From the NCBI GenBank assembly GCA_964403795.1, contig CAYOHP010000017.1:1821-65820 (forward strand): a stretch of 64,000 nucleotides of DNA, read 5' to 3'. Positions within the stretch are counted from its first letter, which is position 1, and every line of letters starts with the position of its first letter. Positions 2,422 through 56,148 of this stretch are shown piece by piece. The DNA comes from an uncultured bacterium. Lineage in GTDB: Bacteria > Muiribacteriota > UBA6191 > CAZXTJ01 > CAYOHP01. The translations under genes were made by a program, and so were the position numbers. Below the pieces are notes generated by a model. That model searched no databases. It saw nothing but the letters and a program-made list of their open reading frames with translations, and had not been told where the DNA came from.

Positions 2422-3232
2422 GCCGGGCCGTGGCGTCGATCCCGAACCGCTCCAGGCCGAACAGGGAGATCGCGGTGCGGGTGGTGGCGAGGTCGACCTC
2501 CCGGGGGTCGAGGCCCTTGCACCGGGCGATCAGGTCGCGGGAGAGCCCGAGGTTCGCGGGCTCGTTGCGCTCGCCCCGGACCGGTCCGAGCACCGGGGCA
2601 TCGGTCTCCAGCAACAGTGCCTCCAGGGGGAGACGCTCGATCAGGCGGGCCGCCTGCTCCGAGCGGATCGAGGAAGGCGTGATCGAGAAGCGGTAGCCGT
2701 GGCGCTCCCAGGCCTCGGTGGCGAGCGAGACCTTGCCGTCGAAGGCGTGCATGAGGACCCGTTCGGCTCCGGCCCCGGCCAGCACCTCCAGGGTCCGGCG
2801 GGCCGCCCCCCGGGAGTGGACGTTCAGGGCCAGGCCGAGCTCCCGGGACAGGGCCGCGAACCCGGCGAGGACCTCCTCCTGGCGGGTCCGGCGCTCCGGA
2901 TCCTTGGTGTACCAGTGGTCGAGCCCCACTTCGCCGATCGCCGCCAGACCCGGGGCGGAGGCCCGGATCCGCTCGAAAACCGCCTCGAGATCGCCCCGGG
3001 GGGGCAGAGGCAGCGAGTCGGCGAGGCGGTCGGGGTGGTATCCGAAACAGGGGAGGAGGCGAGGCCAGCGCTCGTCCCGGAGCCCGGCGAGCGATCCGAC
3101 CCGATCGTCGTCACCGGCATCCTCGCCGACCACCAGGATGGCAGCCACTCCGGCCTCCCTGGCCCGGACCAGCACCTCGGTGCGGTCGACCTCGAAGGCC
3201 GGACCGTGGACGTGCGAATGGCAGTCGATCAT
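2399..3232 (-). CDS. tatD: TatD-family metal-dependent hydrolase (DNase)
   Basis: Internal start MIDCHSHVHGPAFEV (HxH motif). TatD-type TIM-barrel hydrolase signatures (GEVGLDHWY..., NVHSRGA..., ETDAPVL). The upstream part of the 349-aa ORF is low-complexity junk. Confidence 0.75.
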   Translation of the reverse strand: MIDCHSHVHGPAFEVDRTEVLVRAREAGVAAILVVGEDAGDDDRVGSLAGLRDERWPRLLPCFGYHPDRLADSLPLPPRGDLEAVFERIRASAPGLAAIGEVGLDHWYTKDPERRTRQEEVLAGFAALSRELGLALNVHSRGAARRTLEVLAGAGAERVLMHAFDGKVSLATEAWERHGYRFSITPSSIRSEQAARLIERLPLEALLLETDAPVLGPVRGERNEPANLGLSRDLIARCKGLDPREVDLATTRTAISLFGLERFGIDATARHGGGFDG

Positions 3233-3359
3233 CCCGGCCCAGGGTACCCCGGGCCATTCCCGGGCCTCCCGGGTGCGAGCGGGTCCATGGCACCCTGGGA
3301 GCGACCCGGAACGAGAGGCTCGAGTGTCCCGTCCCCCCCAGGATCCGTCGCCCCCGGCC

Positions 3360-4794: not shown

Positions 4795-6531
4795 CTACTT
4801 CAAGTAGGTGTCGAGGAACGTGATGGTGGCCGCCACCTCGTCCGCCATGAACTTCTCGTCGGGCTCGTGGGCGAGATCCGGGTAGATCTTGATGTCCACC
4901 GTGACCCCGGCGCCCTTCAGCTTGTCGCCGTAGGTCGTGCTCTGCTGGTAGGGGACCACCGGATCCTGCTGTCCGTGGCGGATCAGGTGCGGGGGATCGC
5001 CGCCGTCGACGTAGTCGAAGGGCGAGATGGCTCCCTGGCTCTGGAGGAACTGGGAGGCCAGGTCGGGGGGGAAGCCGCCGCCGCCCCGGTGCTCGGTGAA
5101 GGTGGCGAAGTTGGTCGGTCCGGCCCAGTCGACCACCGCCTGCACCGCAGGCGAGGTCCCGCTGCCGCCGCCCTCGCTGCCGAGCTTGCCCACGTTGCCG
5201 GTGGAGCCGACCGTGGCCGAGAGGTAGCCTCCGGCCGAGGCGCCCACCGCCGCGAACTTGGCGGCATCGAGGTTCCACTTGCCGGCGTTGTCCTTGAGCC
5301 AGCGCACCGCCTTGCGGGCGTCATAGGCAGCCTTGGCGATCTCGGCGACCTTCTCGATCGGGTTCGAGCCGCCCAGGGCGTCGCCGGCCAGCAGGTAGTA
5401 GTTGGCGCTGGCCAGGGCGTAGCCCTTTTCGAGCACCGGGAAGAAGGTCTTCACGTCCTTCTTGTCGCCCCGGTAGAAGCCGCCTCCGTGGAAGAACACG
5501 ATCACCGGGATGGGACCGGCCGGAGGGGTCGAGGGAAGGTAGAGGTCGAGGACCTGGCGGGCGTGGTCGGTGCCGTACTTGAGGTCGGCCCGATCGCCCA
5601 GGCTGGCGGCGGGATCGCTGGCCGGCGGGGTGGTCGGAGGCGGGGTGGTCCCGTCGGGGTTGGTCAGGTCCGGGACGTTCTCGCCACCGCCCGAGGGCGG
5701 GGGTGCATCGCCCTGGGGATCGCCCGATCCTGATCCGGTTCCCGGGGTGCCCTGCCCGTCGGTACCAGTACCGGTACCGGTACCGGTTCCCGTTCCGTCC
5801 CCCTCAGGCCTCGGATTGGAGGCAGAGCCCGGATCTCCAGCCCCTCCGCCCGAAGTCGATCCACCGTTGGCTCCGGCCGCGGCCGCGGCGGCCGCCTTGG
5901 CAGCCTCGTCGGCCGCTCGCTGGGCCGCCTGGACCCGCTCGACCTCCTGGGCCGCGATCGTGGAGGCGGAGCCGGGATCGCCCGCCACCAGCAGGCCCGC
6001 CTCGGCACCGTGGGCGACCATGTAGGCGATGGCGGACGCCGGGACCGAGTCGGCCCGGCTCGAACGCACCATCTGGGTGCCGGGTTCGAGGCTGACGACG
6101 TGACCCGAGTCGTCCCACTGCGTCCCCCGGGACGCTTCCTCGGCCTTCCAGGCATCCCAGAGGGCCCGGAGCGGTCCGGTCACGGCCGCCCAGTTGGAGG
6201 CATCGTGGACCGGTCGGACCGTGGTCCCCGGATCCGCCGAGCCCGGGGTGGTGGAACCCGGGCCCGGTCCCGAGGCGGGGACGGAGGAGGTCGGCTGGGG
6301 TGACGCCACCGGTGACGGGGTCGGGGAAGGCGTGGGGGCCACCGTGGTGGGCGTGGAGGACGTGGGGGCGCCGCCGCTCGACTCGGGCGAAGGGGTGGGA
6401 TTGGGCGTCTGGGCCCAGAGGGAGGCGCCAGGCAGCGCCAGGAGCAGGATTCCGAGCCCCAGGAGCCCGGGGAGTCCCGGGATGAAACCGCTCGCGCCGC
6501 GACCGTTCATGACCCTCCGACCGCTCTCCAC
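4795..6531 (-). CDS. Secreted alpha/beta-hydrolase (fold-3 esterase/lipase-like) with Pro/Thr/Ser-rich linker
   Basis: Signal peptide (GFIPGLPGLLGLGILLLALPGASLWAQ). Long PT/S-rich low-complexity region including a (GT)n repeat. C-terminal catalytic domain with HGGGF oxyanion motif, GASAGG (GxSxG) nucleophile, and later Asp/His. Confidence 0.75.
   Translation of the reverse strand: MESGRRVMNGRGASGFIPGLPGLLGLGILLLALPGASLWAQTPNPTPSPESSGGAPTSSTPTTVAPTPSPTPSPVASPQPTSSVPASGPGPGSTTPGSADPGTTVRPVHDASNWAAVTGPLRALWDAWKAEEASRGTQWDDSGHVVSLEPGTQMVRSSRADSVPASAIAYMVAHGAEAGLLVAGDPGSASTIAAQEVERVQAAQRAADEAAKAAAAAAAGANGGSTSGGGAGDPGSASNPRPEGDGTGTGTGTGTGTDGQGTPGTGSGSGDPQGDAPPPSGGGENVPDLTNPDGTTPPPTTPPASDPAASLGDRADLKYGTDHARQVLDLYLPSTPPAGPIPVIVFFHGGGFYRGDKKDVKTFFPVLEKGYALASANYYLLAGDALGGSNPIEKVAEIAKAAYDARKAVRWLKDNAGKWNLDAAKFAAVGASAGGYLSATVGSTGNVGKLGSEGGGSGTSPAVQAVVDWAGPTNFATFTEHRGGGGFPPDLASQFLQSQGAISPFDYVDGGDPPHLIRHGQQDPVVPYQQSTTYGDKLKGAGVTVDIKIYPDLAHEPDEKFMADEVAATITFLDTYLK
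5761..5790. repeat. Imperfect (GGTACC)5 hexanucleotide microsatellite inside the esterase linker (encodes GTGTGTGTGT)
   Basis: ggtaccagtaccggtaccggtaccggttcc. Contains three KpnI/Acc65I sites. Confidence 0.7.
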
Positions 6532-20365: not shown

Positions 20366-20524
20366 GCGCCGAAGCGGGCACGCGCCGAATCAGTTCGGAC
20401 TCAAGATTGATTCGGGAGACCCTTCGGTCGCAGCGTCCGGGGCCCCGATGCGTGGTGGCACGCGCCTTGCCAGGTACGGCCTCGCTCCCTGCCCGACCGG
20501 CGGGAACGTACTCCTGGAGGCTCC

Positions 20525-21597: not shown

Positions 21598-22921
<1,324 letters not shown>

Positions 22922-22947
<26 letters not shown>

Positions 22948-27873: not shown

Positions 27874-27910
27874 GAGGGCCGGCTCCCGGGACCGGATCCG
27901 AGCGGCCGGA

Positions 27911-28372
27911 TCAGCCCGGTTCGGGTGACGCTGCGCCCAGCTCCCACTCCAGGTTGCGCTTCACTCCCGCATCCATGCGGATGAGCCGCGCCCAGCCGGG
28001 ACGGAACACCCAGAACCTGTGCCCGGCAGCCGCCGCGACCATGGGAGCGGCCATCGGGAAGCGCGAGAGGTAGAGCCTCGTCAGCTCCGCCTGCCGATCC
28101 GGCGGAGCCTCGGCGCGACCGGAGAGCTGGACCCCCCGGATCGAGGCGACACCCGGGTCGGACTCCGCGATCGCCACCCCGGCACGCGGCTCGCCGACCA
28201 GATCGCGCGAGTGCCGGGTCGAGTCGGCGCTGATCCACACGAGTTCGAGACTGCCGGCGGCCCGGGCGAAGAACAGGGACGCGGCATGGGGACCGGCTCC
28301 GCTCCAGGTCGAGAGGTGGAGCACATGGTGGCGGTCGAGGTACTCGTGGAGAGGTTGCAGGTCGTCCGCCAT
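27911..28372 (-). CDS. Pyridoxamine 5'-phosphate oxidase-like FMN-binding split-barrel protein
   Basis: Internal start MADDLQPLHEYLDRHHVLHLSTWSGAGPHAASLFFA. PNPOx/general-stress-protein-26 fold pattern. ~153 aa. The upstream part of the 488-aa ORF is junk. Confidence 0.55.
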   Translation of the reverse strand: MADDLQPLHEYLDRHHVLHLSTWSGAGPHAASLFFARAAGSLELVWISADSTRHSRDLVGEPRAGVAIAESDPGVASIRGVQLSGRAEAPPDRQAELTRLYLSRFPMAAPMVAAAAGHRFWVFRPGWARLIRMDAGVKRNLEWELGAASPEPG

Positions 28373-28389
28373 GGCGCCGGATCCGGGTC

Positions 28390-35655: not shown

Positions 35656-37125
35656 GTGCCGTTTCGTCCGTTCCATCCCCGGACCGTTCCCCTGCGGGTC
35701 GGGGCCCTGCTCCTGGCCTGCGTGGGACCGGTCACCGCCGAGCGCCACCTCATGCTCGCCAACCAGGGTCGGGAACCTCTCTGCGTGGAGGGGACGAGCG
35801 TGCGGGGAGGCGTCGCCCCCGGCGCCTGGCAGGAACCCTCGGGGGGACGCCCCCGGCCCGACCTGGAATGCCGCTACCTGGTCGAGCCGGGGGAACGGAT
35901 CGAGTTCCTGCGCACCAACTGGGACCAGGGCGTCCCCGACGGCTCCTCCTCGTGGTTCTCGACCCGGGTCCGGAGCGTCGACGGCGAGCGGATCGAACTC
36001 GCCCACAAGCTGGACGGCGAGACCATCGGCAGCAACCTCTGGCGCCGGGTCGGAGGCTCGACCTGGGTCGACGACGACGCCCCCCGGACCCACGCCTGGG
36101 TGAGGCGGGACGGGGCGGCGCCGATCGAGGTGGTGGTGGACGGGCGGCGGGTCGAGTACCGCTTCGGAGCGGTCCGGCCAGTGCCGGCGACGACGGATCC
36201 CGAGGGCTTCCGGGTGCTGGCCTTCAATGCCGCGCTGCTGCCGGCCGGGGGCACCGGGGTCGAGGCCCGCGCCGCCCGATTGGCCGAGGTGCTCGGTGGC
36301 CATGACGCCCTGGTGCTCTCGGAGCTCTTCGCCGACGACGCCCGGGAGCGGCTGCTCCGCGATCTCTCGCCCGAGTACCCCTGGCAGACCTCGGTGCTGG
36401 AGGACGACGATCCCCTGGCCCAGGACGGCGGGGTGGTGATCGTCTCCCGCTGGCCCATCCTCCACCAGGCGGAGCACTTCTACACGGGAGGAGTGGGCAC
36501 CGATTCCCTCTCGGCCAAGGGCGCCATGGTGGCTTCGATCCGAGGACCACAGGGGATCCTCCACCTGGTGGGGACCCACACCCAGTCCGACGCCGACGGC
36601 TGGGCCGATTCGGTGATCGACGGGATCGCCTTCCCCGGAGTCTTCACCCGGCCTGCGCCTGCCGCGGTGCGGGACCGCCAGTTCCGGTCGCTGGAGGCGT
36701 TCCTGGCCGGCCTCGGCCTGCCGGAGGACGAGCCCCTGGTGATCGCCGGGGACCTGAACGTGGCCAGGGCCTCGACCCGGGAGTTCGAGGCCATGCTCAG
36801 AACCCTCGGGGCGGTCGAGCCGGCGGGCGACCGGGAGGGACCGACCTGGGATCCGGGCAACGAGCTCGTCGCCGACGGGGACCGGCCGGCCCGCCTGGAC
36901 TACCTGCTGGTCTCGCTCCGCCACCGGGGCATCGACCCCGCGGCCTCCCGGACCGAGGTGGTCCGGCTCAGGTCCCCGACGCCCTGGGACGGGTCGCGGA
37001 CCGACCTCTCGGACCACTACGCGGTGTCGACCCGGCTTCAGTTCGCAGGGGGGAAGTCGGCCGCCGCGTTCCCGGCTGGCCCGGAGGGAGCCGACTCGGG
37101 CGGCTTCCTCGGGCAGGGGGAATAG
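35656..37125 (+). CDS. Secreted endonuclease/exonuclease/phosphatase-family protein (sphingomyelinase/phosphodiesterase-like)
   Basis: Putative GTG start giving signal peptide MPFRPFHPRTVPLRVGALLLACVGPVTA. EEP motifs (FRVLAFNAAL, VLSELF, GTHTQSD, IAGDLNVARAS, LSDHYAVS). Divergent from the glycan operon. Start uncertain (alternative upstream ATG at ~35449). Confidence 0.6.
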   Translation: MPFRPFHPRTVPLRVGALLLACVGPVTAERHLMLANQGREPLCVEGTSVRGGVAPGAWQEPSGGRPRPDLECRYLVEPGERIEFLRTNWDQGVPDGSSSWFSTRVRSVDGERIELAHKLDGETIGSNLWRRVGGSTWVDDDAPRTHAWVRRDGAAPIEVVVDGRRVEYRFGAVRPVPATTDPEGFRVLAFNAALLPAGGTGVEARAARLAEVLGGHDALVLSELFADDARERLLRDLSPEYPWQTSVLEDDDPLAQDGGVVIVSRWPILHQAEHFYTGGVGTDSLSAKGAMVASIRGPQGILHLVGTHTQSDADGWADSVIDGIAFPGVFTRPAPAAVRDRQFRSLEAFLAGLGLPEDEPLVIAGDLNVARASTREFEAMLRTLGAVEPAGDREGPTWDPGNELVADGDRPARLDYLLVSLRHRGIDPAASRTEVVRLRSPTPWDGSRTDLSDHYAVSTRLQFAGGKSAAAFPAGPEGADSGGFLGQGE

Positions 37126-37132
37126 CGACGGG

Positions 37133-38029
37133 TTACAGATCCAAGCGCCAGTTGGCGAGGATCCCGAACTGGAGGAGGGCGACGTCCCGGGCGAGCTGGG
37201 CGTTCTGCTTCCAGTGGCCGTCGACGTACTCGCGACCCCAGGCCTCGGCGGTCTGGCCGCCGGCGAGCGGCGGGCGCACCCAGAGGTCGTAGACCAGCAC
37301 GTCGCCCGGCGCGAGCCCCAGGGTGTTCAGGGTCCGCTGGGGGGGCTGGCCGGGACGGCGCAGGTCCATCCAGCGCACCTTGGCGGGATCGGCCCAGGCG
37401 GCGTTGGAGATGAGACCCACGCCCGCGTGGTTGGGCGTCAGCCACTCGAGCTCGACCACGCCCTCGCCCACCACCGAGAGGTCCTGGACCCGGATCCGCT
37501 GGTCGGCGAGGTGGACGAGCGCGGGATCGGCCAGGGCCAGGTCCACGAGCTTCAGGAGGAGCTGCTGATGATCGCCGCAGATCCCCCAGCCCCGGCGCAC
37601 GATCAGCCGGTAGTCGTTCTCCTTCGAGGTGAAGCCCTGGGCGATGGCGCCGGGAGCCCGGCGGGCTCCCTGGACGAACCCTGCGTTGGAGGCATAGGGG
37701 GTGTCGCTCACCCAGCGCCGGGTCAACTCGCCCAGCAGGTCCTCCATGGTGATGTCCTGGGGGTCCGGGGCCTGGCTCCGGAGCTGCCAGGCGACCAGGC
37801 GCACGAACCGGCGCAGGACGTCGTCCACTTCCTGGTCGGTGAGGGCCTTGCCGGTGGGCCAGAAGGCCCGGGCGTCGCGACCCGGCCAGACCGGACCCTG
37901 GGCCCGGAGCGCCGGGGCGGCCGGCAGGCCGTCGTCGGGATCCTGGCCGAGGGCCTGGGCCGGGAGGTTCGCCGGATGGGAGGCGAGCAGGAGGGCGAGC
38001 CCTCCGAACACCAGGCGCGTCCAGACCAT
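37133..38029 (-). CDS. Hypothetical secreted protein
   Basis: Signal peptide (MVWTRLVFGGLALLLASHPANLPAQA). Normal amino-acid composition. Convergent with the EEP gene with a 7-bp gap. Confidence 0.45.
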   Translation of the reverse strand: MVWTRLVFGGLALLLASHPANLPAQALGQDPDDGLPAAPALRAQGPVWPGRDARAFWPTGKALTDQEVDDVLRRFVRLVAWQLRSQAPDPQDITMEDLLGELTRRWVSDTPYASNAGFVQGARRAPGAIAQGFTSKENDYRLIVRRGWGICGDHQQLLLKLVDLALADPALVHLADQRIRVQDLSVVGEGVVELEWLTPNHAGVGLISNAAWADPAKVRWMDLRRPGQPPQRTLNTLGLAPGDVLVYDLWVRPPLAGGQTAEAWGREYVDGHWKQNAQLARDVALLQFGILANWRLDL

Positions 38030-38164
38030 CGGGACCTCCCTTCCATGGATACGCCGAAGGGCGTAGCGGGGTTGCGGGCCGGCCCTCCGGACGCGCAGCG
38101 CCCCCGGGGCCCGGCTCGGGGCCGGATCCGGGGGCGCTGCGTCGGGGGCGGAGACCCTTGGGCC

Positions 38165-38896
38165 TCAGGTCCTCTCGTTCTGGACCTCCTCGAGGCGGCG
38201 GTACAGGAGCTGGAAGCGCTCCTCGTCGTTGTAGCCGAGCCGCTCGGCCTCGTCGGCCACCATCTGGATCAACGGCCGGTACATCTCGCCGAAGCGCTCG
38301 GTCTGGAACCGGATGAAGTCGGCCTTGGGGACGGTCTCGCCGGCCCCGGAGAGTCCGGTGTCCCGGGCTGCGGCATTGGTGATGTCCTCGAGCATCTCCT
38401 CCCGCTCCTTGGCGGTGAGCGACCGGCCGAGCTGGCGCTCCCGCTCGGCGATCCGCTCCCGGGCACGCCGCATCGCGCCCTGCAGGTCCTCGGGCACGCC
38501 GTTGACCCGGACGAGGGCCTCGCACTCCGAGAGCACCTGGCGGCTGCCGGCCTCGGCGGCCTCGATCAGGCACTCCTTGGTGGGGATCCGGACGCCGTCC
38601 CTGGGGCTCAGGCGATCCGGGTCGGTGAACCCGTTGGCGGCCGCCAGCAGGTCGACCAGACCACCCTGGCCCCAGAGAGGCAGATCGGTGCGGCCGATGT
38701 CCCGGCGGACCTTCTGGGCGATCTCGCCCAGGGTGTCGCCCCGCATCACCAGGGCGCCGTTGCCCACGGCCTCTCCGCCCTCGATCTGGTCGGAGGACAC
38801 GAAGGCCGGAGCCGAAGTGATGCGTCCGGGATCGACCGGGGCGGTGCCCAGGCCGCAGTCCATGCCCATCCCGAGCAGGTTGGCGTCGCCTTCCGT
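38165..38896. repeat. Segmental duplication copy A (3' ~730 bp of LysM gene A)
   Basis: Nucleotide-level similarity to 39800..~40531 visible by eye (e.g. gaagcgctcctcgtcgttgtagcc / gaagcgctcgtcgtcgttgtaacc; gccgaagcgctcggtctggaaccggatgaagtcggccttggg). Extent approximate. Confidence 0.6.
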
Positions 38897-39448
38897 GCAC
38901 TCGATCTTGCTCTCGTCGTCGGCCAGGGCCGAGGCCACGTTGCGGGTGCTGCGGGCCCGTTCGACGAGGCTCTTGAACCGGTCGCCGCGAAGAAGTTCTT
39001 CCGGTGTGGCCGGGTTCTGGATCGCTCCGTCGAGTCGCTCGTAGATCTTCTGCATCGGGCAGCCCATCTCCTTGCAGAACCAGATCGCGTGGACCTTGGC
39101 AGCGATCTCCTCCCGGAGCGCCTCGGCCCGACGCTTGGTAGCCGTGTAGGTCTGGGTGGCAACGGAGAACCGCGTCTCGTTGGCCCCGAGAGCCCGGCAG
39201 GAGTCGCCCCGTCCCTGGCCCTGGAGACAGCTCTTGGCTGCCTCCTGGAGGGCGAGCGCGGCCGCCATCTGGTCGCTGCGGGCGGCTTCGAGGGCCGTCA
39301 CCATCTCGTCCACCTGTTCCCGCTCCGCCCTCCCGGGATCGGTGCGGATCGCCCAGACGCTGGTGGCCGGGCCGGACCAGAGGGCGAGGGCAAGGCCCAG
39401 GCGGGCCAGCCGGAGGGTATTGCTGCGGACCGTCTCGATGTTTCGCAC
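38165..39448 (-). CDS. Secreted Cys-containing LysM-domain protein (paralog A)
   Basis: Putative GTG start (MRNIETVRSNTLRLARLGLALALWSGPATSVWA signal peptide). LysM-like motif (MRGDTLGEIAQKV...LPLWGQGGLVDLLAAANGFTDPDRLSPRDGVRIP). C-terminal ~240 aa are ~70-80% identical to the downstream paralog. Confidence 0.65.
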   Translation of the reverse strand: MRNIETVRSNTLRLARLGLALALWSGPATSVWAIRTDPGRAEREQVDEMVTALEAARSDQMAAALALQEAAKSCLQGQGRGDSCRALGANETRFSVATQTYTATKRRAEALREEIAAKVHAIWFCKEMGCPMQKIYERLDGAIQNPATPEELLRGDRFKSLVERARSTRNVASALADDESKIECTEGDANLLGMGMDCGLGTAPVDPGRITSAPAFVSSDQIEGGEAVGNGALVMRGDTLGEIAQKVRRDIGRTDLPLWGQGGLVDLLAAANGFTDPDRLSPRDGVRIPTKECLIEAAEAGSRQVLSECEALVRVNGVPEDLQGAMRRARERIAERERQLGRSLTAKEREEMLEDITNAAARDTGLSGAGETVPKADFIRFQTERFGEMYRPLIQMVADEAERLGYNDEERFQLLYRRLEEVQNERT

Positions 39449-39501
39449 GATGGGTTCCTTCCTGCTCCGAGGTGTCGGATCGGCCCGACGTAATCGGACA
39501 A

Positions 39502-39517
39502 AGCAACGCCCGTGCCA
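39502..39517 (-). promoter_or_regulatory. Sigma-54 (RpoN) -24/-12 promoter upstream of LysM gene A
   Basis: Minus-strand sequence TGGCACGGGCGTTGCT matches TGGCACG-N4-TTGCW at every constrained position. ~55-70 bp upstream of the GTG start. Coordinates may be off by 1-2. Confidence 0.65.
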
Positions 39518-39637
39518 GGCACCCACGGGCCACCACCATGACCATGAAGATCCGCTTCTGGAGCGGATCCACGCAGAGCGTCCCCGCATGCAGGAGGCGC
39601 CCTGGCCGGTGAGACGCAGGAGCGGTCCCGGCGCACC

Positions 39638-39652
39638 GGAGTCTCAAACTCC
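39638..39652. promoter_or_regulatory. Conserved inverted-repeat element (GGAGTCTCAAACTCC), candidate enhancer-binding-protein site ~125 bp upstream of sigma-54 promoter A
   Basis: Perfect IR GGAGT-N5-ACTCC. The 13-mer CGGAGTCTCAAAC recurs at the same distance upstream of promoter B. Confidence 0.4.
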
Positions 39653-39799
39653 GTCGCGACGTATCCCCGACATGCAAACCGCCGCCCCCGGGGGCGGACC
39701 CGGGGGCGGCGGCGGGCGTGCGGGCGATGGGAGGTGCCGGTCCTCTCTCCGGCATCGGTGGGAAGGGCTAGGGATCGAGGTAGCGAACCCGGGGGCCTC

Positions 39800-40531
39800 T
39801 CAGTCGGTGCTGGCTTCCCGCATGCGGCGCTCCAAGTGGAGGAAGCGCTCGTCGTCGTTGTAACCCCGGGCCTCGGCCTCGTCGGCGACCTGGGTGATCA
39901 GGTCCTTCCAGGCTTCGCCGAAGCGCTCGGTCTGGTTCCGGATGAAGTCGGCCTTGGGTACCGAGCTCAGCCCGGCGAAGTCGTTGGCCGGGCTGGCCGC
40001 CACGTTGGCGGCGTCCTCGAGCATCTCGACCCGCTCCTTGTCGGTGAGCTTGCGGCCCAGCCGGGCCTCGGCCTCGACGATCCGCTCCCGGGCCCGCCGC
40101 ATGGCGGCCTGGAGGTTCTCGGGCACGCCCTGGACCCGCACCAGCTCCTCGCACTCCGAGAGGACCTGACGGCTCCCCGCCTCGGCGGCTTCGACCAGGC
40201 ACTCCTTGGTGGGGATCCGGATCCCGTCCTTGGGGTTCAGGCGATCCGGATTGGTGACCCCGTTGGCGGCCGCCAGCAGGTCGACCAGGCCACCGTTGCC
40301 CCAGAGCGGCAGGTCGGGGCGGCCGAGCTGGCGGCGCACCGCCTGGGCGATGTGGCCCAGCGTGTCGCCCTTCATCACGGTGGCGCCGTTGCCGAGCGCC
40401 TCGGTGGTCGCCAGGGCGGAGGTGGGCACGAACTCGGGAGCCGTGCGATCCGGCACGTGGTGGGCGAGGCGGCCCACCTCGCCGCAATCGATGCCCATCC
40501 CGAGCAGGCTGGCATCGCCCTGCTGGCAGCG
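39800..40531. repeat. Segmental duplication copy B (3' ~730 bp of LysM gene B)
   Basis: See copy A. Extent approximate. Confidence 0.6.
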
Positions 40532-41713
40532 GATGCTCCCAGAGTTCCCGGCCAGCACGCTGTCGACGGCCCGCTGCCGGCGGCCCTGGGCCTCGACGTC
40601 GTCGGCGATGCCATCGGCGATCTCGCCGACCTCGTCGAAGCCGGGATTCCCGGTCACGACTCGCTCCGGCTCGACATCCGGGGCGATCCGCAGGGCCTCG
40701 TCCTCGGGCTTCATGTTCCCCGCCAGACAGCGCTCCTGGAACCGATTGCATTCGGTGGCCCTTCCGGGACCGTTGCGGAGGAAGCCCACGATGTCGTGTC
40801 GCACCACTGCGGGCTCCATGCCGCTCCGGACCTCGGGATCGCAGATCGCGCGGAACGCATTGGATGGGTCGTTCCCCCAGGCCGCGCAGGCCTCCTCGAA
40901 GGTGAGCACCGGGGGCATCTCGGCGGCGCGCAGGGCGACGTTGGTCTTCTCGCGGTAGACGCCGACATAGAAGTCGGTCAGGCCGTCCTTGCAGGTCGCG
41001 TCGTCCGGGTAATTCCGGCACTTCACGATCGCATCGCCGAGCTGGGTGGGAGTGGCGCTCCGGGCCCAGTTCCGGCGAGCCTCCAGGGCCGCCTCGGCCT
41101 CCCGCTGGGCGGCCAGGGCCGCCATCGAGGCCGCGTCGGCGGCCCGCACCCGGGCCTGCTGGGCCCGGGTCACCGCGGCGTCGACCCCGGAGACCAGCCG
41201 ACGGTGCTCGTCGAGGGCATCTCCCAGGCCGGCCTCGACCTCGCCGACGTAGCCCCGGTAGCCGGTCTTGTTCGCTTCGCAGTTCGACTCCCGGACTCCG
41301 AAGGTGATGCCGTTCAGGAAGGCCCCGACGATGTCCGTGGCCTGGCAGGACTCGGCGAGGGCCCGCTCCACCCGGACCCCGAGCTCGGTCACGGCCTCCC
41401 TGGCATAGGCCACCGCCGCCTGGTGGCTCTCCTCGGCTCTTCGATAGGTGGCGACCGCATCATCGAGGCCGCGGCACGCATTCGCCTCGCCGGAAGCCAT
41501 GGCGCAGGCCTCGGCCAAGGACCTCACCCGGTCGGCAGCGCCTCCCAGGCGGATCCTCTCCGACTCGAGCGCCCCGATCCTCTGGAAGGCCTCGAATCGG
41601 ACGTCCTCCACGTGGGGCATGTCGGCGAAGTTCCCGCCCGACACCGGCGACCACGGCAACACCCCGAGCGCCATCCCCAGCACCGCCGCATTCAACCCGT
41701 AGCGTCCCGCCAT
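39800..41713 (-). CDS. Secreted Cys-rich LysM-domain protein (paralog B)
   Basis: 637 aa. N-terminal hydrophobic signal. Same LysM-containing C-terminal module (MKGDTLGHIAQAV...LPLWGNGGLVDLLAAANGVTNPDRLNPKDGIRIP). Confidence 0.65.
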   Translation of the reverse strand: MAGRYGLNAAVLGMALGVLPWSPVSGGNFADMPHVEDVRFEAFQRIGALESERIRLGGAADRVRSLAEACAMASGEANACRGLDDAVATYRRAEESHQAAVAYAREAVTELGVRVERALAESCQATDIVGAFLNGITFGVRESNCEANKTGYRGYVGEVEAGLGDALDEHRRLVSGVDAAVTRAQQARVRAADAASMAALAAQREAEAALEARRNWARSATPTQLGDAIVKCRNYPDDATCKDGLTDFYVGVYREKTNVALRAAEMPPVLTFEEACAAWGNDPSNAFRAICDPEVRSGMEPAVVRHDIVGFLRNGPGRATECNRFQERCLAGNMKPEDEALRIAPDVEPERVVTGNPGFDEVGEIADGIADDVEAQGRRQRAVDSVLAGNSGSIRCQQGDASLLGMGIDCGEVGRLAHHVPDRTAPEFVPTSALATTEALGNGATVMKGDTLGHIAQAVRRQLGRPDLPLWGNGGLVDLLAAANGVTNPDRLNPKDGIRIPTKECLVEAAEAGSRQVLSECEELVRVQGVPENLQAAMRRARERIVEAEARLGRKLTDKERVEMLEDAANVAASPANDFAGLSSVPKADFIRNQTERFGEAWKDLITQVADEAEARGYNDDERFLHLERRMREASTD

Positions 41714-41760
41714 GTCCCTGCCTCCGTGACGTCGGGTCCGCCCCCGACGGGACCCGGAGA

Positions 41761-41776
41761 TGCAACCCCCGTGCCA
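41761..41776 (-). promoter_or_regulatory. Sigma-54 (RpoN) -24/-12 promoter upstream of LysM gene B
   Basis: Minus-strand sequence TGGCACGGGGGTTGCA matches TGGCACG-N4-TTGCW exactly. ~50-65 bp upstream of the start at 41713. Confidence 0.65.
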
Positions 41777-41892
41777 GCCGACCAGGTACCTCGGAGCCTC
41801 CCGCCCAAACCAGCTCCGGCAGCCGATCCTGGCCTCCGGTTCCGACCACGGGGTGTTCCCCGGATCTCACCCCGACCGGGATCGTCGCGGCG

Positions 41893-41917
41893 GAGTCTCA
41901 AACCAGTGTCCGACTCC
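41893..41917. promoter_or_regulatory. Conserved inverted-repeat element (GGAGTCTCAAAC...GACTCC), candidate enhancer-binding-protein site ~120 bp upstream of sigma-54 promoter B
   Basis: Shares the CGGAGTCTCAAAC 13-mer with element A. IR half-sites GGAGTC / GACTCC with a 14-bp spacer. Confidence 0.4.
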
Positions 41918-42038
41918 CGGACACCCCCGCACCGGTCGAGCGAGGCGGGCCGCCTGATCCATCCCGGGCCAGGGACGCGGCTCCCGGCCTTCCCCCGGTG
42001 CAACTGGTAGCATCGCCCCCCCACCGCGAGGAGTCCCC

Positions 42039-43055
42039 GTGATCGAGGTCGAGGCACTGAGGAAGACGTTCCGGGTCCACCGCAAGGATCCGGGGTTCTG
42101 GGGATCGGTGCGCTCGCTCTTCTCCCGGGAGACGATCGAGAAGCCGGCCGTGAAGGACGTCTCGTTCCGGGTCGAGGAGGGCGAGATCGTCGGGCTGGTG
42201 GGCGCCAACGGGGCGGGCAAGACCACCCTGGTCAAGATGCTCGCCGGGATCATCCATCCCTCGGGAGGCGACGCCCGGGTGCTGGGGCACAGGCCCTGGG
42301 AACGGCACGACGAGTTCCGCCACCAGATCGCCCTGATCATGGGCCAGAAGGCCCAGCTCTGGTGGGACCTGCCGGCCGCCGACGGGTTCCTGCTGCTGAA
42401 GGAGGTCTACCGGATCGACGAGACCCGCTACCGGGAGACCCTCGCCTACCTGACCGAGGTCCTCGGGGTCGGCGCCGAACTGAACATCCAGATCCGGCGG
42501 CTGTCGCTGGGCGAGCGCATGAAGATGGAGCTGATCGCGGCCCTGCTCCATGCGCCCCGGGTGGTCTACCTCGACGAGCCGACCATCGGGCTCGACCTCA
42601 CCGCCCAGCGGGCGATCCGGGACTTCCTGCTCGCCTACCGGGAGGAGCACCGCCCGGCGATGCTCCTGACCAGCCACTACATGGAGGACATCCAGCGCCT
42701 CTGCAAGCGGATCCTCATCCTGCGCGACGGCGAGCTGGTCTACGACGGGGCGCTCTCCGAGGTGGTGCGGCGCTACGCTCCGGACCGGCTGGTCACGGTC
42801 CACCTGGCGCGCGACCGGGAGGACGGCCGGGCCGGGCTCGACCTGGCAGCCTTCGGCGAGGTGGTGGCCTCGGACGCCGACCAGCTCCGCCTGCGGGTGG
42901 CGCGGGAGCGGGTGCCCGAGGTCTCCTCGGCGCTCCTGGCGCGCCTCGCAGTGGTCGACCTCCAGATCGCCGAGGACGACGTGGGGTCCATCATCGAGCG
43001 GATCATGGGGGCCCGGGGCGGGATGCCGGCGGCCGCCGGACCGGGCGCGTCATGA
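42039..43055 (+). CDS. ABC transporter ATP-binding protein
   Basis: GTG start. Walker A GANGAGKTT, ABC signature LSLGERMKMELIAALL, Walker B VVYLDEPTIGLD, H-loop SHYM. Confidence 0.85.
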   Translation: MIEVEALRKTFRVHRKDPGFWGSVRSLFSRETIEKPAVKDVSFRVEEGEIVGLVGANGAGKTTLVKMLAGIIHPSGGDARVLGHRPWERHDEFRHQIALIMGQKAQLWWDLPAADGFLLLKEVYRIDETRYRETLAYLTEVLGVGAELNIQIRRLSLGERMKMELIAALLHAPRVVYLDEPTIGLDLTAQRAIRDFLLAYREEHRPAMLLTSHYMEDIQRLCKRILILRDGELVYDGALSEVVRRYAPDRLVTVHLARDREDGRAGLDLAAFGEVVASDADQLRLRVARERVPEVSSALLARLAVVDLQIAEDDVGSIIERIMGARGGMPAAAGPGAS

Positions 43056-50901: not shown

Positions 50902-51086
50902 GGAATCTAGGTCCGGAGCGAGGGCTCGCCAACCCGGGTGAGAAACCGCGCCCCACGGCCCGCTGGGGTCGCACCCGGTCTCGGAGCCCATGGTCTCGCG
51001 AGACCGCGTCGGGGACCGACACACCGGGCGATGCGGCTGGGGATCGATCTGGCCCGGTATGTGCGAAGGCCAGCTGCGGAGGCCTC

Positions 51087-51941
51087 ATGTCGTTCCGAAC
51101 TCCCCGCATCCTTCGCCGCCGGCCGATGCTCCTGTCCGTCCTCTTCGTCTCGATCGGGCTGACCACGCCGCCCCGCTCCCTCCGGGCGGCCCCGGCCGGA
51201 CCGGAACCCGGAGGCCAGAGCGGTTTCCTCGGGCAGGAGGAGGGACCGGGTCTGCCTTCCGGACCGCTCCCGGGGCCTTCCGGCCCCGAACTCCGCGAGG
51301 CGCCCCTCCCGGCGCTGCGGGAAGTCCCCTCTCCCGCGCTCCGGGTCGTGGCAGGGCCGCCGGCACTCTCCGGGGACCTGGATCCCGACGGCTTCGTCTT
51401 CTCTTCGGAGTGGCCCAAGCGTATCCCGCTCGGGTCGGGTGGAGGCGGCGAGTCCTGGAGGGGATCGCCGAGGCCCGCGGTCTCGCAGGGCTTCCATCGC
51501 GGCCTGCTCCACTGGAGCTTCCTGCGCGGCCTGGACGACCACTCGCAGGCCAGTCCCTCGCTGGGAGAGGTCGAGGCCGACCTGTCGCGCCGGCGTGCCG
51601 GAGGCGAGCGGCTGGTCTCCACGCTGTACCGGGCCATGTGCGAATGGTCGGCTGCCCGCGACGGCCTGGCCGCCGCGGAGGGTCGGGATACCGAGGCTCG
51701 CCAGGCCGTCTGGAGACGATGGGTGGAAGAACTGGATGTCGAGATCGTGGCCCTCCGGGCGCTCGGGGCCCGGCTGGCGCCTTCCCGTAGCGCGGCGCTC
51801 CCCATGCACGAGGCCGCAGGCCGGATCTACGGAGCGAGCCCCGCGGGGAGCGTCGAGGAGGGCACCGCCCTGCGCTGGGTCGAGGAGCTGGAGACGGATC
51901 TCCGCGCCTACGGATTCGGCCCCGAGTCTCCGAGACCCTGA
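51087..51941 (+). CDS. Hypothetical secreted protein (Pro-rich N-terminal region)
   Basis: Signal-like MLLSVLFVSIGLTTPPRSLRAAPAG. Realistic downstream composition. The alternative long minus ORF here is Arg/Gly/Pro junk. Confidence 0.35.
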   Translation: MSFRTPRILRRRPMLLSVLFVSIGLTTPPRSLRAAPAGPEPGGQSGFLGQEEGPGLPSGPLPGPSGPELREAPLPALREVPSPALRVVAGPPALSGDLDPDGFVFSSEWPKRIPLGSGGGGESWRGSPRPAVSQGFHRGLLHWSFLRGLDDHSQASPSLGEVEADLSRRRAGGERLVSTLYRAMCEWSAARDGLAAAEGRDTEARQAVWRRWVEELDVEIVALRALGARLAPSRSAALPMHEAAGRIYGASPAGSVEEGTALRWVEELETDLRAYGFGPESPRP

Positions 51942-51962: not shown

Positions 51963-52646
51963 GTGTCTGGGGTGGGCGTGCCTCCGAGGTCTCCCCCCCG
52001 CTCCGCCACTCGCCGAGGCCAGAGCCGCTGTCTGGTTTGCGGTACCGGCGTCGGGCACCGGGACTCCGTCGCATGCCGGCGCTGCGAGACCCCGGTCCAC
52101 CCGGAATGCTGGAGCTACGCGGGTGTCTGCCCCGTCTACGGATGCCGGTCGCGGGAGCGGATCGAGGCTGGCCCGGGAGTCCCATCCCACCCCGTGACCG
52201 CGGCTCCCGCGGATCGAGGTCCTGGGCAGCGGGTGCCCGACTGGACCGACATGGGAGTCTGGGTACGCGACTGCGTGCTCGTGATCGTCCGGTTCGCCAT
52301 GATGCTGGGCCTGGTCCTGGCCATCCAGATGGAGATCGGGACGATCCGGGAGCCGACCCTCTGGTCGGTGGGCCTCCTCGTGACGTCGATCGGGTACGCA
52401 GCCGGGTACTCGTCCCGGTTCGCCATCCCGGAGAACTCGACCGGGGAGGGCGAACGCCATGGGGCCGCCTGGCTTCTCGGGTTCCTCATCGAGGCCGCAG
52501 TGGTGGCAGCGAGTTCCGTGGCCTGCATCCCGGTGGGAACGATAGGTCTGGCCTGCGTGCTCCATGGCGCAATGCCGGATCTCGAATGCACGGCAGCGAT
52601 CTGCGGCGCGCCCTATCAGCTGGGCCACAGGTTGGCCTGGGGCTGA
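51963..52646 (+). CDS. Hypothetical membrane protein with N-terminal Cys-rich zinc-ribbon-like motif
   Basis: CLVCGTGVGHRDSVACRRCETPVHPECWSYAGVCPVYGC (CxxC...CxxC...H..C) followed by ~4 TM helices. Confidence 0.4.
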   Translation: MSGVGVPPRSPPRSATRRGQSRCLVCGTGVGHRDSVACRRCETPVHPECWSYAGVCPVYGCRSRERIEAGPGVPSHPVTAAPADRGPGQRVPDWTDMGVWVRDCVLVIVRFAMMLGLVLAIQMEIGTIREPTLWSVGLLVTSIGYAAGYSSRFAIPENSTGEGERHGAAWLLGFLIEAAVVAASSVACIPVGTIGLACVLHGAMPDLECTAAICGAPYQLGHRLAWG

Positions 52647-52690: not shown

Positions 52691-53998
52691 CTATTCCTCC
52701 GGCTCGGCCTCTCCCCCGCCGCGCATGACGGTGAGCCGGCGGTACAAGGTCGCCCTGCCGATCCCCAGCATCCGGGCAGCCCGGTTGCGATTGCCGCCGC
52801 AGCGGTCCAGGGCGACCTCGATCTCGGCGTCGGTGAGCGAGGCCGTCCGTTCCCGCTGGGCACGCATGATCTCCCCGGCCTCGCGACTCCATCCGGTCCT
52901 CGGGGCCGAACCGATCCTGAGGTCCCGCGCCCGGAGGATCCCATCGAGGGATACCGCCGCCGCGCCCCGGAGCACATAGGCCAGCTCCCGGATGTTCCCG
53001 GGCCAGGCATGGGCCCGCATGGCGTCCTTGGCATCGTCGGCCAGCGAGATCCCGGCCGGCAGGAACTCCCGGGCCAGGAGGAAGAGGTCGTCGCCCCGGG
53101 CCCGCAGGGGAGGGACGTCGAGGACCACCGCGCTCAGCCGGAAGAAGAGATCGGCCCGGAACGTCCCCTCGGCGACCCGGGCCGCCAGGTCCCGGTGGGA
53201 GGCGCTCACCACCCTCACCCGGACCCGCAGCGTCCCGGTGCTGCCCAGGGGCCGCACCTCCCCTTCCTGCAGGGCCCGCAGCAACTGGGACTGGATCGCC
53301 GCCGGCAGCTCCCCGATCTCGTCCAGGAAGAGGGTGCCGCCGTCCGCCGCCACGAAGGCTCCCTGGCGGGCCGCTCCCGCCCCCGTGTAGGCGCCCTCGA
53401 CGTGTCCGAACAACTCGCTCCGGGCGGTCTCGGGATCCGAGAGCTGGGTGCAGTCCACGACCTGGTAGGGACCTTCGGGATCCCGCCCGAGGCGATGGAT
53501 GGCGCGGGCCAGGAGTTCCTTGCCGGTCCCCGTCTCGCCCTGGAGCAGCAGGGGGAGGTCGAGCGGCGCCACCTTCTCGACCAGCGAGAGCAGGTCGGCG
53601 AGCGCTCGGCTGTTGCCGATCACCCCCGCGAAGCTCTCCCTCCGGGGGGGCGTGACCGGGAGGTGGTCCGTCCGGGAGCGCAGCACGAAGGCACTCGATC
53701 CAAGGCGCACGGTCTGATCCGGGGCCAGGTCGGCATCGCGGACCCTGACCTTCTCGACGAAGGTCCCGGACCGGGACTCGAGATCGACGACCCGGTATCC
53801 GGTACCGGAGGGTTCGAGGCGCAGGTGCTCGCGCGAGACCGAAGGATCCCGGAACACCAGGTCCGCGGTCTCGGAACGTCCCAGGATCACAGGCTGGTCC
53901 GTGAGGGCCCGTTCGAGTCCGGCCTCGGGCCCCTCGGTCACGACCAGGACCATCCGTTCGAGCCGCAGGGCGACCCCCTGGGCCGAGGTGGTCAGCAT
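52691..53998 (-). CDS. Sigma-54-dependent transcriptional activator with N-terminal FHA domain (paralog 2)
   Basis: Internal start MLTTSAQGVALRLERMVLVV (alternative ATG 54 bp upstream). FHA (VILGRSETADLVFRDPSVSREHLRLEPSGTGYRVVDLESRSGTFV). AAA+ (GETGTGKE, ELFGHVEGAYTGA, DLFFRLSAV). HTH (AARMLGIGRATLYRRL). Confidence 0.9.
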   Translation of the reverse strand: MLTTSAQGVALRLERMVLVVTEGPEAGLERALTDQPVILGRSETADLVFRDPSVSREHLRLEPSGTGYRVVDLESRSGTFVEKVRVRDADLAPDQTVRLGSSAFVLRSRTDHLPVTPPRRESFAGVIGNSRALADLLSLVEKVAPLDLPLLLQGETGTGKELLARAIHRLGRDPEGPYQVVDCTQLSDPETARSELFGHVEGAYTGAGAARQGAFVAADGGTLFLDEIGELPAAIQSQLLRALQEGEVRPLGSTGTLRVRVRVVSASHRDLAARVAEGTFRADLFFRLSAVVLDVPPLRARGDDLFLLAREFLPAGISLADDAKDAMRAHAWPGNIRELAYVLRGAAAVSLDGILRARDLRIGSAPRTGWSREAGEIMRAQRERTASLTDAEIEVALDRCGGNRNRAARMLGIGRATLYRRLTVMRGGGEAEPEE

Positions 53999-54099
53999 GC
54001 TGCGGGTGGTGGATTCGCTCACCCCGCCATTGCACCAGAGGGCCGGTGCCATCGCAATTCCGCTCTGCCGCGTCCCAGGTCGCCCGTACACTCGTCCCG

Positions 54100-56148
54100 A
54101 TGACAGGTCCCGATCCCGACCCGCGCTACGGACGTCGCTACCAGGCGATCCGCCTGGTCGGGAAGGGCGCCAACGGCGAGGTCTACGAGGCCCTCGACAC
54201 CCGCCTGGAACGGAGGGTGGCGGTGAAGGTCTTCGGGGCGAGCCCCGACTTCGACGCCGGTCGGCAGCGCTTCACCCGGGAGGCAAGGCTGCTCGGTTCC
54301 CACCCGCACCCCGCGATCGTCGCGGTCCTCGATGTGGACATGGAGTCGGATCCGCCCTTCCTGGTGCTGGCCTGGATGCCGGGGGGAGACCTGGCGGACC
54401 TGCTGCGCCTGAGCGGTGCCCTGCCGGCGGCCGAGGTGGTCCGGATCGGTGCCCGTCTGGCCTCCGCCCTCGCCCACCTCCACGGGCTCGGGATCCTGCA
54501 CCGGGACGTGAAGCTCGAGAACGTCCTGCGGGACGAGGCCGGGGAGGTCGCGCTCGCCGACCTGGGCCTCGCCGCCGGTGAGGGCATGGCGCCCCTGACC
54601 AAGACGGGATTCCTGGTAGGGACGCCCCGCTACATGGCGCCCGAGCTCGCCCACGAGGGGGTCTACTCGGCGGCCTCCGACCTCTTCGCCCTGGGTGTGG
54701 TCCTGGCGGAACTGGGGACCGGGCAGCGGCGGAGCGTCTCGGCGCCCGACCGGGATCGGGAATCCGAGGACCTGGCGGGGAGCCTCGAGCCGGCGTCGCT
54801 CCGGACCCTGGTCCGCAGCCTCCTCCACAGCCAACCGGGATGGAGACCGGCCAGCGCCAGGGAAATCGCGGAACGCCTGGACGCGATCGGGAGCGAGCTC
54901 TCGGGCGCACCCGTGGGACGCGTCCCGACCTCCACCCTCGAGGACGCGACCAGCGAGGTCCCCGGATCCACGGTGGTGGCACCCGGGAGGCCATCTGCGG
55001 TCGCGGGGCAGGAAGCCGGGTGGTCTGCCGTGCGCCGCCGGGCGGCAGGCGCGGCGGTCGGCGCCCTGGTGGCGCTGCTGGCGATGTCATGGGCGAGGAT
55101 CCGACCCGTCCTCGGTGGCGATCCCGGTTCCGGGGATCCCCGACCCGGGTCGACGAACGTCCCTGCCCCGCCACCCGGGCCGGGAGCCGCGGAAGCGCTG
55201 GCGAAGGCCATGGCGCCTCGTCGCAGGTGTCTGCTCGAGAGCTGGGACCGGACCGACCCGGCGGCCCTGGAGGGACTCGCCGCCCGGATCGAGCGGGTCG
55301 CCGACCAGGAGTGCTTCCAGAGACGAGGGGAACTCCGGGAGATCCTCGCCCGCGCCCTCGACGGAGGCCGTGACGGCGCCACGGCCCCGGTCCTGGAAGC
55401 CTCGGCTCCCTGGTTCGAGGCTGCCGAGCAGGTGCGCCTGCTCACCATGGACCTCGGGACATGGAACCTGGAGCGCTTCGACCGTCGGGACGAGTTCCTG
55501 GCGATGACCGAACGCCTGGAGCAGGTCCAGGACCTGGATCGGCAGCTCGCTTCCGAGATCCTGGTGCCGCGGTTCTCGGAACGGGCGGGCCTGCTCGACC
55601 TGGCGATGCTCGCAGAGGCCCGGCGCACCGATCTGCTCCCGGGGTTCGACGACGTGCTACTGGCGCGGCGCCTGGCCGCCGGGCTCCGGGACGGGGGGGA
55701 GGTCGCAGGCGTCGACGCAGCCGGCACCGCGCTCGCCCGGCTGCTCGACCACGCGCTCCAGCGGGCCCAGACCGACGCCCTGGGACCCGGCCGGCCGCTG
55801 CCCCTGGAACACCTCGATCTCCTGGTCGGCCTGGCGATCCGTCCCGGGAGCCCGGATCGCCACCGGGTCTCGTTCCTCGACCACACCCTCGCCCTGGCGG
55901 CCCACTACGTCTTCATGAGCGCGTTCCGGGACGTGGTCCCTGCGGTACGCGCCGCCGAGCTGGCCCAGCGGCTCCTGGACCGGATCGAGCAGGATGGCGG
56001 TCGCGCCCGCTTCGGCTACCGCCTCCCTGAGGAAGGCTGGTGGGGGCCGCGGCAGCCGGCCTCGAACGCCACCAACCCGGCCGTGGCGGCGCTGCGGTCC
56101 CGCATCCTCTCGCTGCTCGGGCCGGAGGCGTCCCCGACCGGGAGGTGA
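54100..56148 (+). CDS. Ser/Thr protein kinase with TM helix and C-terminal domain
   Basis: Internal start MTGPDPDPRYGRRYQAIRLVGKGANGEVYEA (ORF begins at a GTG 54 bp upstream). HRDVKLENVL, DLGLA, GTPRYMAPE. TM (AAVGALVALLAMSWA). Divergent from the FHA sigma-54 activator with a ~100-bp intergenic region. Confidence 0.8.
   Translation: MTGPDPDPRYGRRYQAIRLVGKGANGEVYEALDTRLERRVAVKVFGASPDFDAGRQRFTREARLLGSHPHPAIVAVLDVDMESDPPFLVLAWMPGGDLADLLRLSGALPAAEVVRIGARLASALAHLHGLGILHRDVKLENVLRDEAGEVALADLGLAAGEGMAPLTKTGFLVGTPRYMAPELAHEGVYSAASDLFALGVVLAELGTGQRRSVSAPDRDRESEDLAGSLEPASLRTLVRSLLHSQPGWRPASAREIAERLDAIGSELSGAPVGRVPTSTLEDATSEVPGSTVVAPGRPSAVAGQEAGWSAVRRRAAGAAVGALVALLAMSWARIRPVLGGDPGSGDPRPGSTNVPAPPPGPGAAEALAKAMAPRRRCLLESWDRTDPAALEGLAARIERVADQECFQRRGELREILARALDGGRDGATAPVLEASAPWFEAAEQVRLLTMDLGTWNLERFDRRDEFLAMTERLEQVQDLDRQLASEILVPRFSERAGLLDLAMLAEARRTDLLPGFDDVLLARRLAAGLRDGGEVAGVDAAGTALARLLDHALQRAQTDALGPGRPLPLEHLDLLVGLAIRPGSPDRHRVSFLDHTLALAAHYVFMSAFRDVVPAVRAAELAQRLLDRIEQDGGRARFGYRLPEEGWWGPRQPASNATNPAVAALRSRILSLLGPEASPTGR

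Follow-up and report, generated by a model that had tools for sequence, protein, structure and literature searches.

A sigma-54 promoter opens only with an ATP-hydrolysing enhancer-binding protein. In 2005, Jelsbak, Givskov and Kaiser reportedly described sigma-54 activators of Myxococcus xanthus that carry an FHA domain and are coupled to serine/threonine (Ser/Thr) kinases. In the same species, clusters of short tandem half-sites for the activator Nla28, CT(C/G)CG(C/G)AG, lie upstream of TGGCACG-N4-TTGC(T/A) promoters (PMC9765219). Here, we analyse two adjacent genes, A and B, on contig CAYOHP010000017.1 of an uncultured bacterium, within a stretch of 64 kb that we call the window (72% G+C; all positions are numbered along the whole of it). 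We consider it quite probable that A and B belong to a very rare family of exported proteins and are transcribed separately, that each has a sigma-54 promoter and an enhancer built of GAGAC units, and that the pair arose by an old duplication.

The arrangement resembles the sigma-54 promoters with bound enhancers of the NtrC/glnAp2 type and of the Nla28 regulon. It shares their TGGCACG-N4-TTGC(T/A) core, their several short half-sites per promoter at about 100 bp or more upstream, and the presence of encoded activators with AAA+ and Fis-type helix-turn-helix (HTH) domains. It appears to work like any sigma-54 promoter with an upstream enhancer, an ordinary type of bacterial switch, and the understanding of such promoters is unchanged. 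The difference from the Nla28 system lies in the unit: that of A and B is (T)GAGAC(T)C with a 9-bp period, another sequence than the Nla28 half-site, and we could match it to no described enhancer. What is new is this enhancer word in 9-bp arrays and its strict tie to a tiny orphan family of apparently exported LysM-like coiled-coil proteins, whose hosts are uncultured, mostly G+C-rich bacteria, together with a possible kinase/FHA input. The value of the locus lies in annotation, in the new enhancer motif and in the small orphan family.

Promoters and upstream units of genes A and B

Genes A and B both lie on the minus strand. Gene B (39800-41713) encodes 637 amino acids (aa) and is publicly available as protein P0001, and gene A (38165-39448) has a GTG start, encodes 427 aa and is publicly available as P0010. 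Their open reading frames (ORFs) have a G+C content at third codon positions (GC3) of 0.91-0.92 (0.92 for B), a strong coding signature, and their ends are matched by an independent public gene call on identical DNA. The upstream spacers measure 351 and 325 bp, the lengths given in an earlier note on this DNA. That note had them as the longest in the window, but a crude GC3-based ORF map has at least one longer gap, of 516 bp (27874-28389). Rfam had no match anywhere in the window, so the long spacers hold no known riboswitch or leader. Small hairpins common to the 5' untranslated regions of A and B were about as stable as those of shuffled sequences (z = -0.7 and +0.1).

A -24/-12 element stands in sense orientation before each gene. 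That of B, TGGCACGGGGGTTGCA (41761-41776, minus strand), has 48 nucleotides (nt) between the C of its -12 GC and the ATG; that of A, TGGCACGGGCGTTGCT (39502-39517, minus strand), has 54 nt before the GTG. The GG and GC dinucleotides are 10 nt apart in both. The exact pattern TGGCACG-N4-TTGCW (TGGCACGNNNNTTGCW) occurs twice in the 64 kb, at these two places, as the earlier note had claimed for the two genes, and it was absent from all of 100 shuffles.

The same element recurs in relatives. We fetched the DNA around nine relatives (loci L002 to L010, G+C 56-76%), which together with A and B gave a set of 11 family promoters. In all nine relatives, TGGCACG is followed at the right spacing by NNGC(A/T/G), and the start codon comes 34-61 nt later. 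A match of this kind within 100 nt would be expected by chance at about 1.5 × 10−3 per promoter. The 16-mers are TGGCACGGAACTCGCA (L002), TGGCACGGATCTCGCT (L003), TGGCACGGAACTGGCT (L004), TGGCACGGATCTCGCA (L005), TGGCACGTCCTTCGCA (L006), TGGCACGCTCTCTGCA (L007), TGGCACGTTTCCTGCA (L008), TGGCACGCCTCGTGCG (L009) and TGGCACGCTAAGTGCT (L010). TGGCACG and the GC dinucleotide are invariant in 11 of the 11 promoters, which bears out the earlier assignment of a sigma-54-type promoter to each gene.

Further upstream, A and B share the 13-mer CGGAGTCTCAAAC, found only at 39637-39649 and 41891-41903 in the window even when one mismatch is allowed (0.05 occurrences expected). Its GAGACTC core lies 128 nt (A) and 123 nt (B) upstream of the T of TGGCAC, close to the 120-125 bp first proposed. 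The distal unit of each gene is TGAGACTCC, which occurs twice in the window, both times here (minus strand). At B it occupies 41892-41900 (-123), within the 13-mer and within the inverted repeat GGAGTC-N14-GACTCC, and at A it occupies 39638-39646 (-128), within the 13-mer and the palindrome CGGAGT-N5-ACTCCG. A proximal unit, overlooked in the earlier note, follows 31 bp downstream of each. At B this is TGAGATCC (41862-41869, minus strand, -92), in the same orientation as the distal unit. At A it is TGAGAC (39610-39615, plus strand, -98), which is inverted and reads GTCTCA on the gene strand.

Counted from the T of TGGCAC, all 11 family promoters have units of the (T)GAGAC(T)C type at positions from -92 to -150. 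Across the six upstream regions compared first, GAGACTC and TGAGACTC were the only 7- and 8-mers common to at least five. Relatives have one to six units each, mostly head-to-tail with a 9-bp period, and 9-bp tandem arrays occur in L002 to L005 and L007 to L010. The arrays read TGAGACTCGCGAGACTC in L003, GAGACTCCTGAGACTCCTGAGACCC plus inverted copies in L007 and GAGACTTCTGAGACTTCGGAGACC in L008, and L010 has four forward and two inverted units. The proximal unit lies at -92 to -105 in eight of the nine relatives; in L008 it is at -113. These promoters thus generally have an enhancer-like site at the expected distance. The earlier note had described that site as an inverted repeat. Both repeats are there, but they are not the conserved part: the GGAGT...ACTCC repeats are local to the A and B sites, and what the relatives share is (T)GAGAC(T)C, mostly in tandem. 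Because promoter and enhancer elements recur before all nine relatives, we regard the sigma-54 reading as strong. It offers a well-supported cis-regulatory code for the family, in which TGGCACG-N4-NNGC is combined with (T)GAGAC(T)C units that lie at -92 to -150.

Under this reading, an activator oligomer would bind the (T)GAGAC(T)C units, of which each window promoter has two, three helical turns apart. The bound activator would then loop to the closed promoter complex at -24/-12, and A and B would be switched on together. A strong hairpin after each gene would end its transcript. Downstream of B and upstream of the enhancer of A lies a G+C-rich hairpin followed by UUUG (39679-39716, minus strand; -52.7 kcal/mol, z = -3.5). 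Downstream of A lies a hairpin with a perfect 14-bp stem (38094-38141, minus strand; -62.2 kcal/mol, z = -4.3). Both are likely terminators, and with one after each gene, A and B are most likely separate sigma-54 transcription units. Past the hairpin of A and 135 bp downstream of the gene, we also observed a 298-aa ORF with a signal-peptide-like start (37133-38029). Searches of Pfam, NCBIfam and PHROGs found nothing for it, and its only homologue among the fetched loci is in L001, which is the window's own DNA.

It is improbable, in our view, that the GAGAC arrays instead bind a regulator outside the sigma-54 system (a winged-helix response regulator, a repressor or an architectural protein), with the true enhancer elsewhere or absent. 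OmpR/PhoB-type regulators typically bind direct repeats whose period is 9-11 bp, and Fis-type HTH activators more often bind dyads. Furthermore, activator genes are absent from all nine family contigs, and binding of the units by a sigma-54 activator is itself putative. However, the arrays always accompany a -24/-12 promoter and keep the usual enhancer distance from it. They also stand before sigma-54 promoters of unrelated neighbour genes, and nothing else is conserved upstream. Nor are tandem half-sites foreign to sigma-54 activators, since they are documented for Nla28 (PMC9765219).

Candidate activators

Pfam confirms both of the FHA-domain sigma-54 activators that had been noticed in the window. 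Activator 1 (21598-22947, plus strand) matches FHA, Sigma54_activat and HTH_8. Activator 2 has the same domains, FHA, AAA+ Sigma54_activat and HTH_8, on the minus strand (52691-54091 as an ORF; 52691-54052 by the public gene call, 453 aa, P0027), and is divergent from a Ser/Thr kinase gene (54046-56148). The two are 39% identical. Their recognition helices read SMGTLRRRL in activator 1 and SRATLYRRL in the activator-2 orthogroup, within which the latter is conserved. The closest homologues of activator 2 are 49-55% identical to it, and the named ones 37-45%, mostly from metagenome-assembled genomes of Myxococcota and some from Planctomycetota.

The locus resembles the FHA/kinase system of M. 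xanthus in that the window encodes FHA-AAA+-HTH activators twice, once divergently from a Pkinase gene, in that kinase genes flank L002 and L003, and in that Myxococcota account for most of the named activator-2 homologues. It differs in that the link between activator and promoters is here a candidate one, and in the distance of even the best activator-2 homologues. As a separate observation, Ser/Thr kinase genes are strikingly frequent near LysM-coiled-coil and FHA-activator loci (54046-56148 and 2718-4739 in the window; L002, L003, L011 and L012), and L011 has three in a row before its activator gene.

Three loci bear on whether activator 2 acts on A and B. A possible third site in the window, about 1.7 kb from activator 2 on the plus strand, combines GGTCTC-N9-GGTCTCGCGAGACC (50978-51004) with a weaker -24/-12-like TGGCCCGGTATGTGCG (51050-51065), 21 nt before an ORF of 284 aa with a signal-peptide-like N-terminus (51087-51941). 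The site is weak, as its promoter match is imperfect and its enhancer nearer than usual. In L011 and L012, genes adjoining activator-2 orthologues have sigma-54 promoters with GAGAC-type units upstream: GGTCTC-N17-GAGACC in L011, and TGAGATcagccTGAGACgacttTGAGAG...GGAGACCC in L012, which comes from the same metagenome as L003 and L005. Activator 2 is a tentative candidate for the cognate activator of the A and B promoters, an assignment more apt to prove wrong than right. GAGAC or GTCTC occurs about 2.5 times per kb and these loci have one to four units, picked out post hoc, so the link is a weak one and we treat it as a lead and not as a result.

Next to the possible third site, we noted a Cys-rich 227-aa ORF (51963-52646), directly after ORF 51087-51941. 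Over 67 aa, it shares 43% identity with a protein of L012 (5578-6372) that has a precomputed Pfam Prok-RING_1 match and lies near the activator-2 orthologue.

That activator 1 is the cognate activator, rather than activator 2 or one encoded outside the window, is very improbable. It lies in the same window and has the same FHA-AAA+-HTH_8 architecture, and one GAGACCC (20416-20422) is found 34-40 nt upstream of the sigma-54 site of its operon. However, the upstream region of that operon has a different dyad, GAATCA-N15-TGATTC (20387-20413), and activator 1 differs from the activator-2 orthogroup in its recognition helix and from activator 2 itself at most positions. The sigma-54 site in question, TGGCACGCGCCTTGCC (20456-20471, plus strand), is a third near-consensus one in the window. 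The next ORF, 54 nt further on, encodes 334 aa without a Pfam or NCBIfam match and is directly followed by activator 1. This ORF and activator 1 are possibly an autoregulated operon.

An orphan family and an old duplication

Every member of the family begins with a hydrophobic, signal-peptide-like stretch, followed by a helical hairpin with C-x4-G-x4-C, a variable middle that is coiled coil or contains Cys residues, and a conserved C-terminal module of about 260 residues. In the relatives, the hydrophobic N-termini have Ala-x-Ala-like motifs and Cys positions are kept. Protein B shows the full plan, with long coiled-coil helices, a Cys-containing linker, the LysM-like domain and a C-terminal helical module. 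We counted 14 Cys residues in B, which had been described as Cys-rich, versus 8 in A; full-length relatives have 10-16, and five of them have 14. The count and the aligned, conserved Cys positions fit disulfide-bonded exported proteins.

The family is very rare, and no database names it. A word-indexed search of 5.8 billion proteins with B gave four full-length relatives of 630-642 aa at 42-46% identity. With the C-terminal profile, the word-indexed search returned two proteins. An exhaustive search by hidden Markov model (HMM) of 1.84 billion cluster representatives was more informative, with 11 proteins at E < 1e-10. No relative turned up when 185,579 species genomes were scanned, once with protein A and once with the family alignment. 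A protein-based metagenome scan for the family likewise returned nothing, and neither A nor B had a match in NCBIfam or PHROGs.

The C-terminal module (about 38165-38960 in A, minus strand) contains the domain first called LysM-like. In B it spans aa 445-501 (40211-40381, minus strand) by Pfam LysM and AlphaFold2 (AF2) models, and in A about 38582-38746 (minus strand). Isolated C-terminal modules match Pfam LysM at E ≤ 0.1 in 9 of 12 family members (best E = 1.2e-5), and the isolated module of B scores 23.1 bits. Against sequences of the PDB, six of the eight profile matches with E up to 1 are LysM proteins, with 6q40, Ecp6, SafA, CEBiP and a chitinase LysM at the top. The AF2 model of the C-terminal module has a mean predicted local distance difference test score (pLDDT) of 71.7, rising above 90 in residues 68-150. 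These residues are predicted to form strand-helix-insert-helix-strand and then helices. The putative likeness to LysM proteins (PF01476) comprises the predicted beta-alpha-alpha-beta unit, the Pfam matches and the pattern GDTL..IA ... N...P..I..G..I.IP in the alignment. Two differences stand out: the family has an insertion of 10-14 residues between the two helices, and its single domain is flanked by a coiled-coil part on the N-terminal side and by a helical module on the C-terminal side. A search for relatives of the fold of the remaining C-terminal module found none that was recognisable. On the Pfam, PDB profile and AF2 evidence, a divergent LysM-like domain with a 10-14-residue insertion is plausible, and the earlier call survives with that qualification and with marginal full-length scores. 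By extension, the A and B proteins may bind the cell wall through peptidoglycan-type ligands.

Paralogy of A and B, as first proposed, is firmly supported. BLASTP aligned 268 C-terminal residues at 62% identity (E = 4e-105), and the shared 3' module is also similar as DNA, with 73% nucleotide identity over 259 aligned codons and 87-88% in the central 60. The N-terminal parts had been described as diverged, which is imprecise. Some 110-120 residues of the N-termini are still weakly homologous (26% identity, E = 0.007) and include the C-x4-G-x4-C hairpin in both; what A does not have is the central part of B. Gene A, which keeps the N-terminal hairpin and the C-terminal module, therefore appears to be an internally deleted copy of B and not an N-terminally diverged one. 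Protein P0008 (485 aa) is an independent case of the same type of central deletion.

The duplication itself appears lineage-specific but old. A neighbor-joining tree of C-terminal modules groups A with B as sisters, with support from 182 of 200 bootstraps. They are 63% identical as proteins, and B is 54-61% identical to orthologues of other organisms. Third positions are 68% identical, synonymous divergence (dS) is about 0.43 and the ratio of nonsynonymous to synonymous divergence (dN/dS) is about 0.7. Upstream of the two genes, alignment is confined to three parts: the -24/-12 element, the 13-mer and a short segment close to the ribosome-binding site. Given this age, the shared motifs would have been retained by selection and would not merely be young: after an old lineage-specific duplication, A would have lost its central region while promoter and enhancer were kept. 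The earlier note had seen a recent segmental duplication. On such a reading, gene, promoter and upstream site were copied together and the motifs would mark recency instead of function. This we find hardly tenable. Adjacency on the same strand, sisterhood in the tree and the similarity of the central 60 codons would fit it, but it is already contradicted by the overall divergence, by the near-equal closeness of B to orthologues elsewhere, by upstream regions that share so little, and by the same motifs in distant relatives.

Least probable of all is a fortuitous match to the sigma-54 consensus, with A and B transcribed from sigma-70 or extracytoplasmic function (ECF)-type promoters: the sigma-54 reading is derived from sequence and not from expression, and G+C-rich DNA yields many such words (22 weaker GG-N10-GC sites in the window score 18-20 of 21), but the shuffles had no exact match, the element is conserved in 11 of 11 promoters at a comparable start-codon distance across divergent genomes, and no sigma-70-like promoter was found in 37000-42300.

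Several points weigh against the combined reading of A and B as exported LysM-like proteins under sigma-54 and GAGAC control. Sequence alone is the basis for both the sigma-54 dependence and the start sites. The window promoters do not have the 9-bp tandem arrangement of the relatives, and their second units are weaker (TGAGATCC at B, the inverted TGAGAC at A). To these must be added the absence of activator genes from L002 to L010 and the commonness of GAGAC described above. No rpoN was seen in the window, though no search aimed at it was made. Pfam LysM scores of the full-length proteins, 21.2 bits for B and 16.8 for A, are at or under the gathering threshold of 20.9, and the PDB sequence matches have E values of only 0.05-0.9. 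Furthermore, export was judged from signal sequences by eye rather than by a predictor.

Neighbourhoods of the relatives and a candidate regulon

The GAGAC and sigma-54 pairing extends beyond the family. Directly upstream of the LysM-coiled-coil gene, three loci have a gene of about 250 aa from a second family (L007 3892-4650, L009 472-1227 and L010 1942-2691; 34-38% identity). This family has no Pfam or NCBIfam match and no homologue in the window. In L007 and L010 the gene, which is unrelated to A and B, has its own TGGCACG promoter and GAGAC cluster, and the L009 gene combines TGGCATG-N4-TTGC with one GAGAC unit. A 420-aa gene of L006 has a weaker version of the pairing upstream. The recurrence of cluster and promoter before unrelated neighbour genes is the pattern of a one-activator regulon. 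Neither A nor the 298-aa gene downstream of it has a relative among the neighbours in L006 and L007.

If activator 2 were cognate, a pathway from Ser/Thr kinase through FHA-activator to sigma-54 would control A and B. The wider form of this hypothesis, Ser/Thr-kinase/FHA signalling that leads to sigma-54 control of cell-envelope proteins, would give a metagenome-only lineage a candidate regulon. The GAGAC array and sigma-54 promoter would then define a lineage-specific regulon of an uncultured, G+C-rich, Myxococcota-like clade, in which a kinase acts through the FHA domain of activator 2 on exported envelope proteins. These would include A, B and about 10 relatives as a hitherto undescribed peptidoglycan-binding coiled-coil family, the 250-aa family of L007, L009 and L010, and ORF 51087-51941. 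As a whole, we hold this proposal to be possible but unlikely.

Other features of the neighbourhoods are recorded here in their own right. In L002, L004 and L005, the B-type gene adjoins a divergent gene for a BD-FAE/alpha-beta hydrolase. Downstream of it in L002 and L003 come a small ORF of 128-130 aa and one or more Ser/Thr kinase genes. The window has a BD-FAE hydrolase gene of its own (4795-6531), which adjoins the kinase gene at 2718-4739 and is separated from A and B by 35 kb. In its N-terminal part, this hydrolase shares 47% identity with the apparently sigma-54-driven 420-aa gene of L006.

We also scanned Joint Genome Institute (JGI) metagenome DNA with the pattern GAGACYNNNGAGACYC-N78-108-TGGCACG-N6-GC. 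The 18 matches, mostly inside coding sequence, are about as many as estimated by chance, so they extend the regulon no further. None of them adjoins a family member, and L016 alone is plausible. There (993-1129, 62% G+C), a tandem GAGACTGTCGAGACCC is followed about 100 bp downstream by a perfect GTGGCACGCCTGTTGCT, before a membrane-protein-like ORF, and the GAGAC enhancer word may thus be used outside the lineage of the family.

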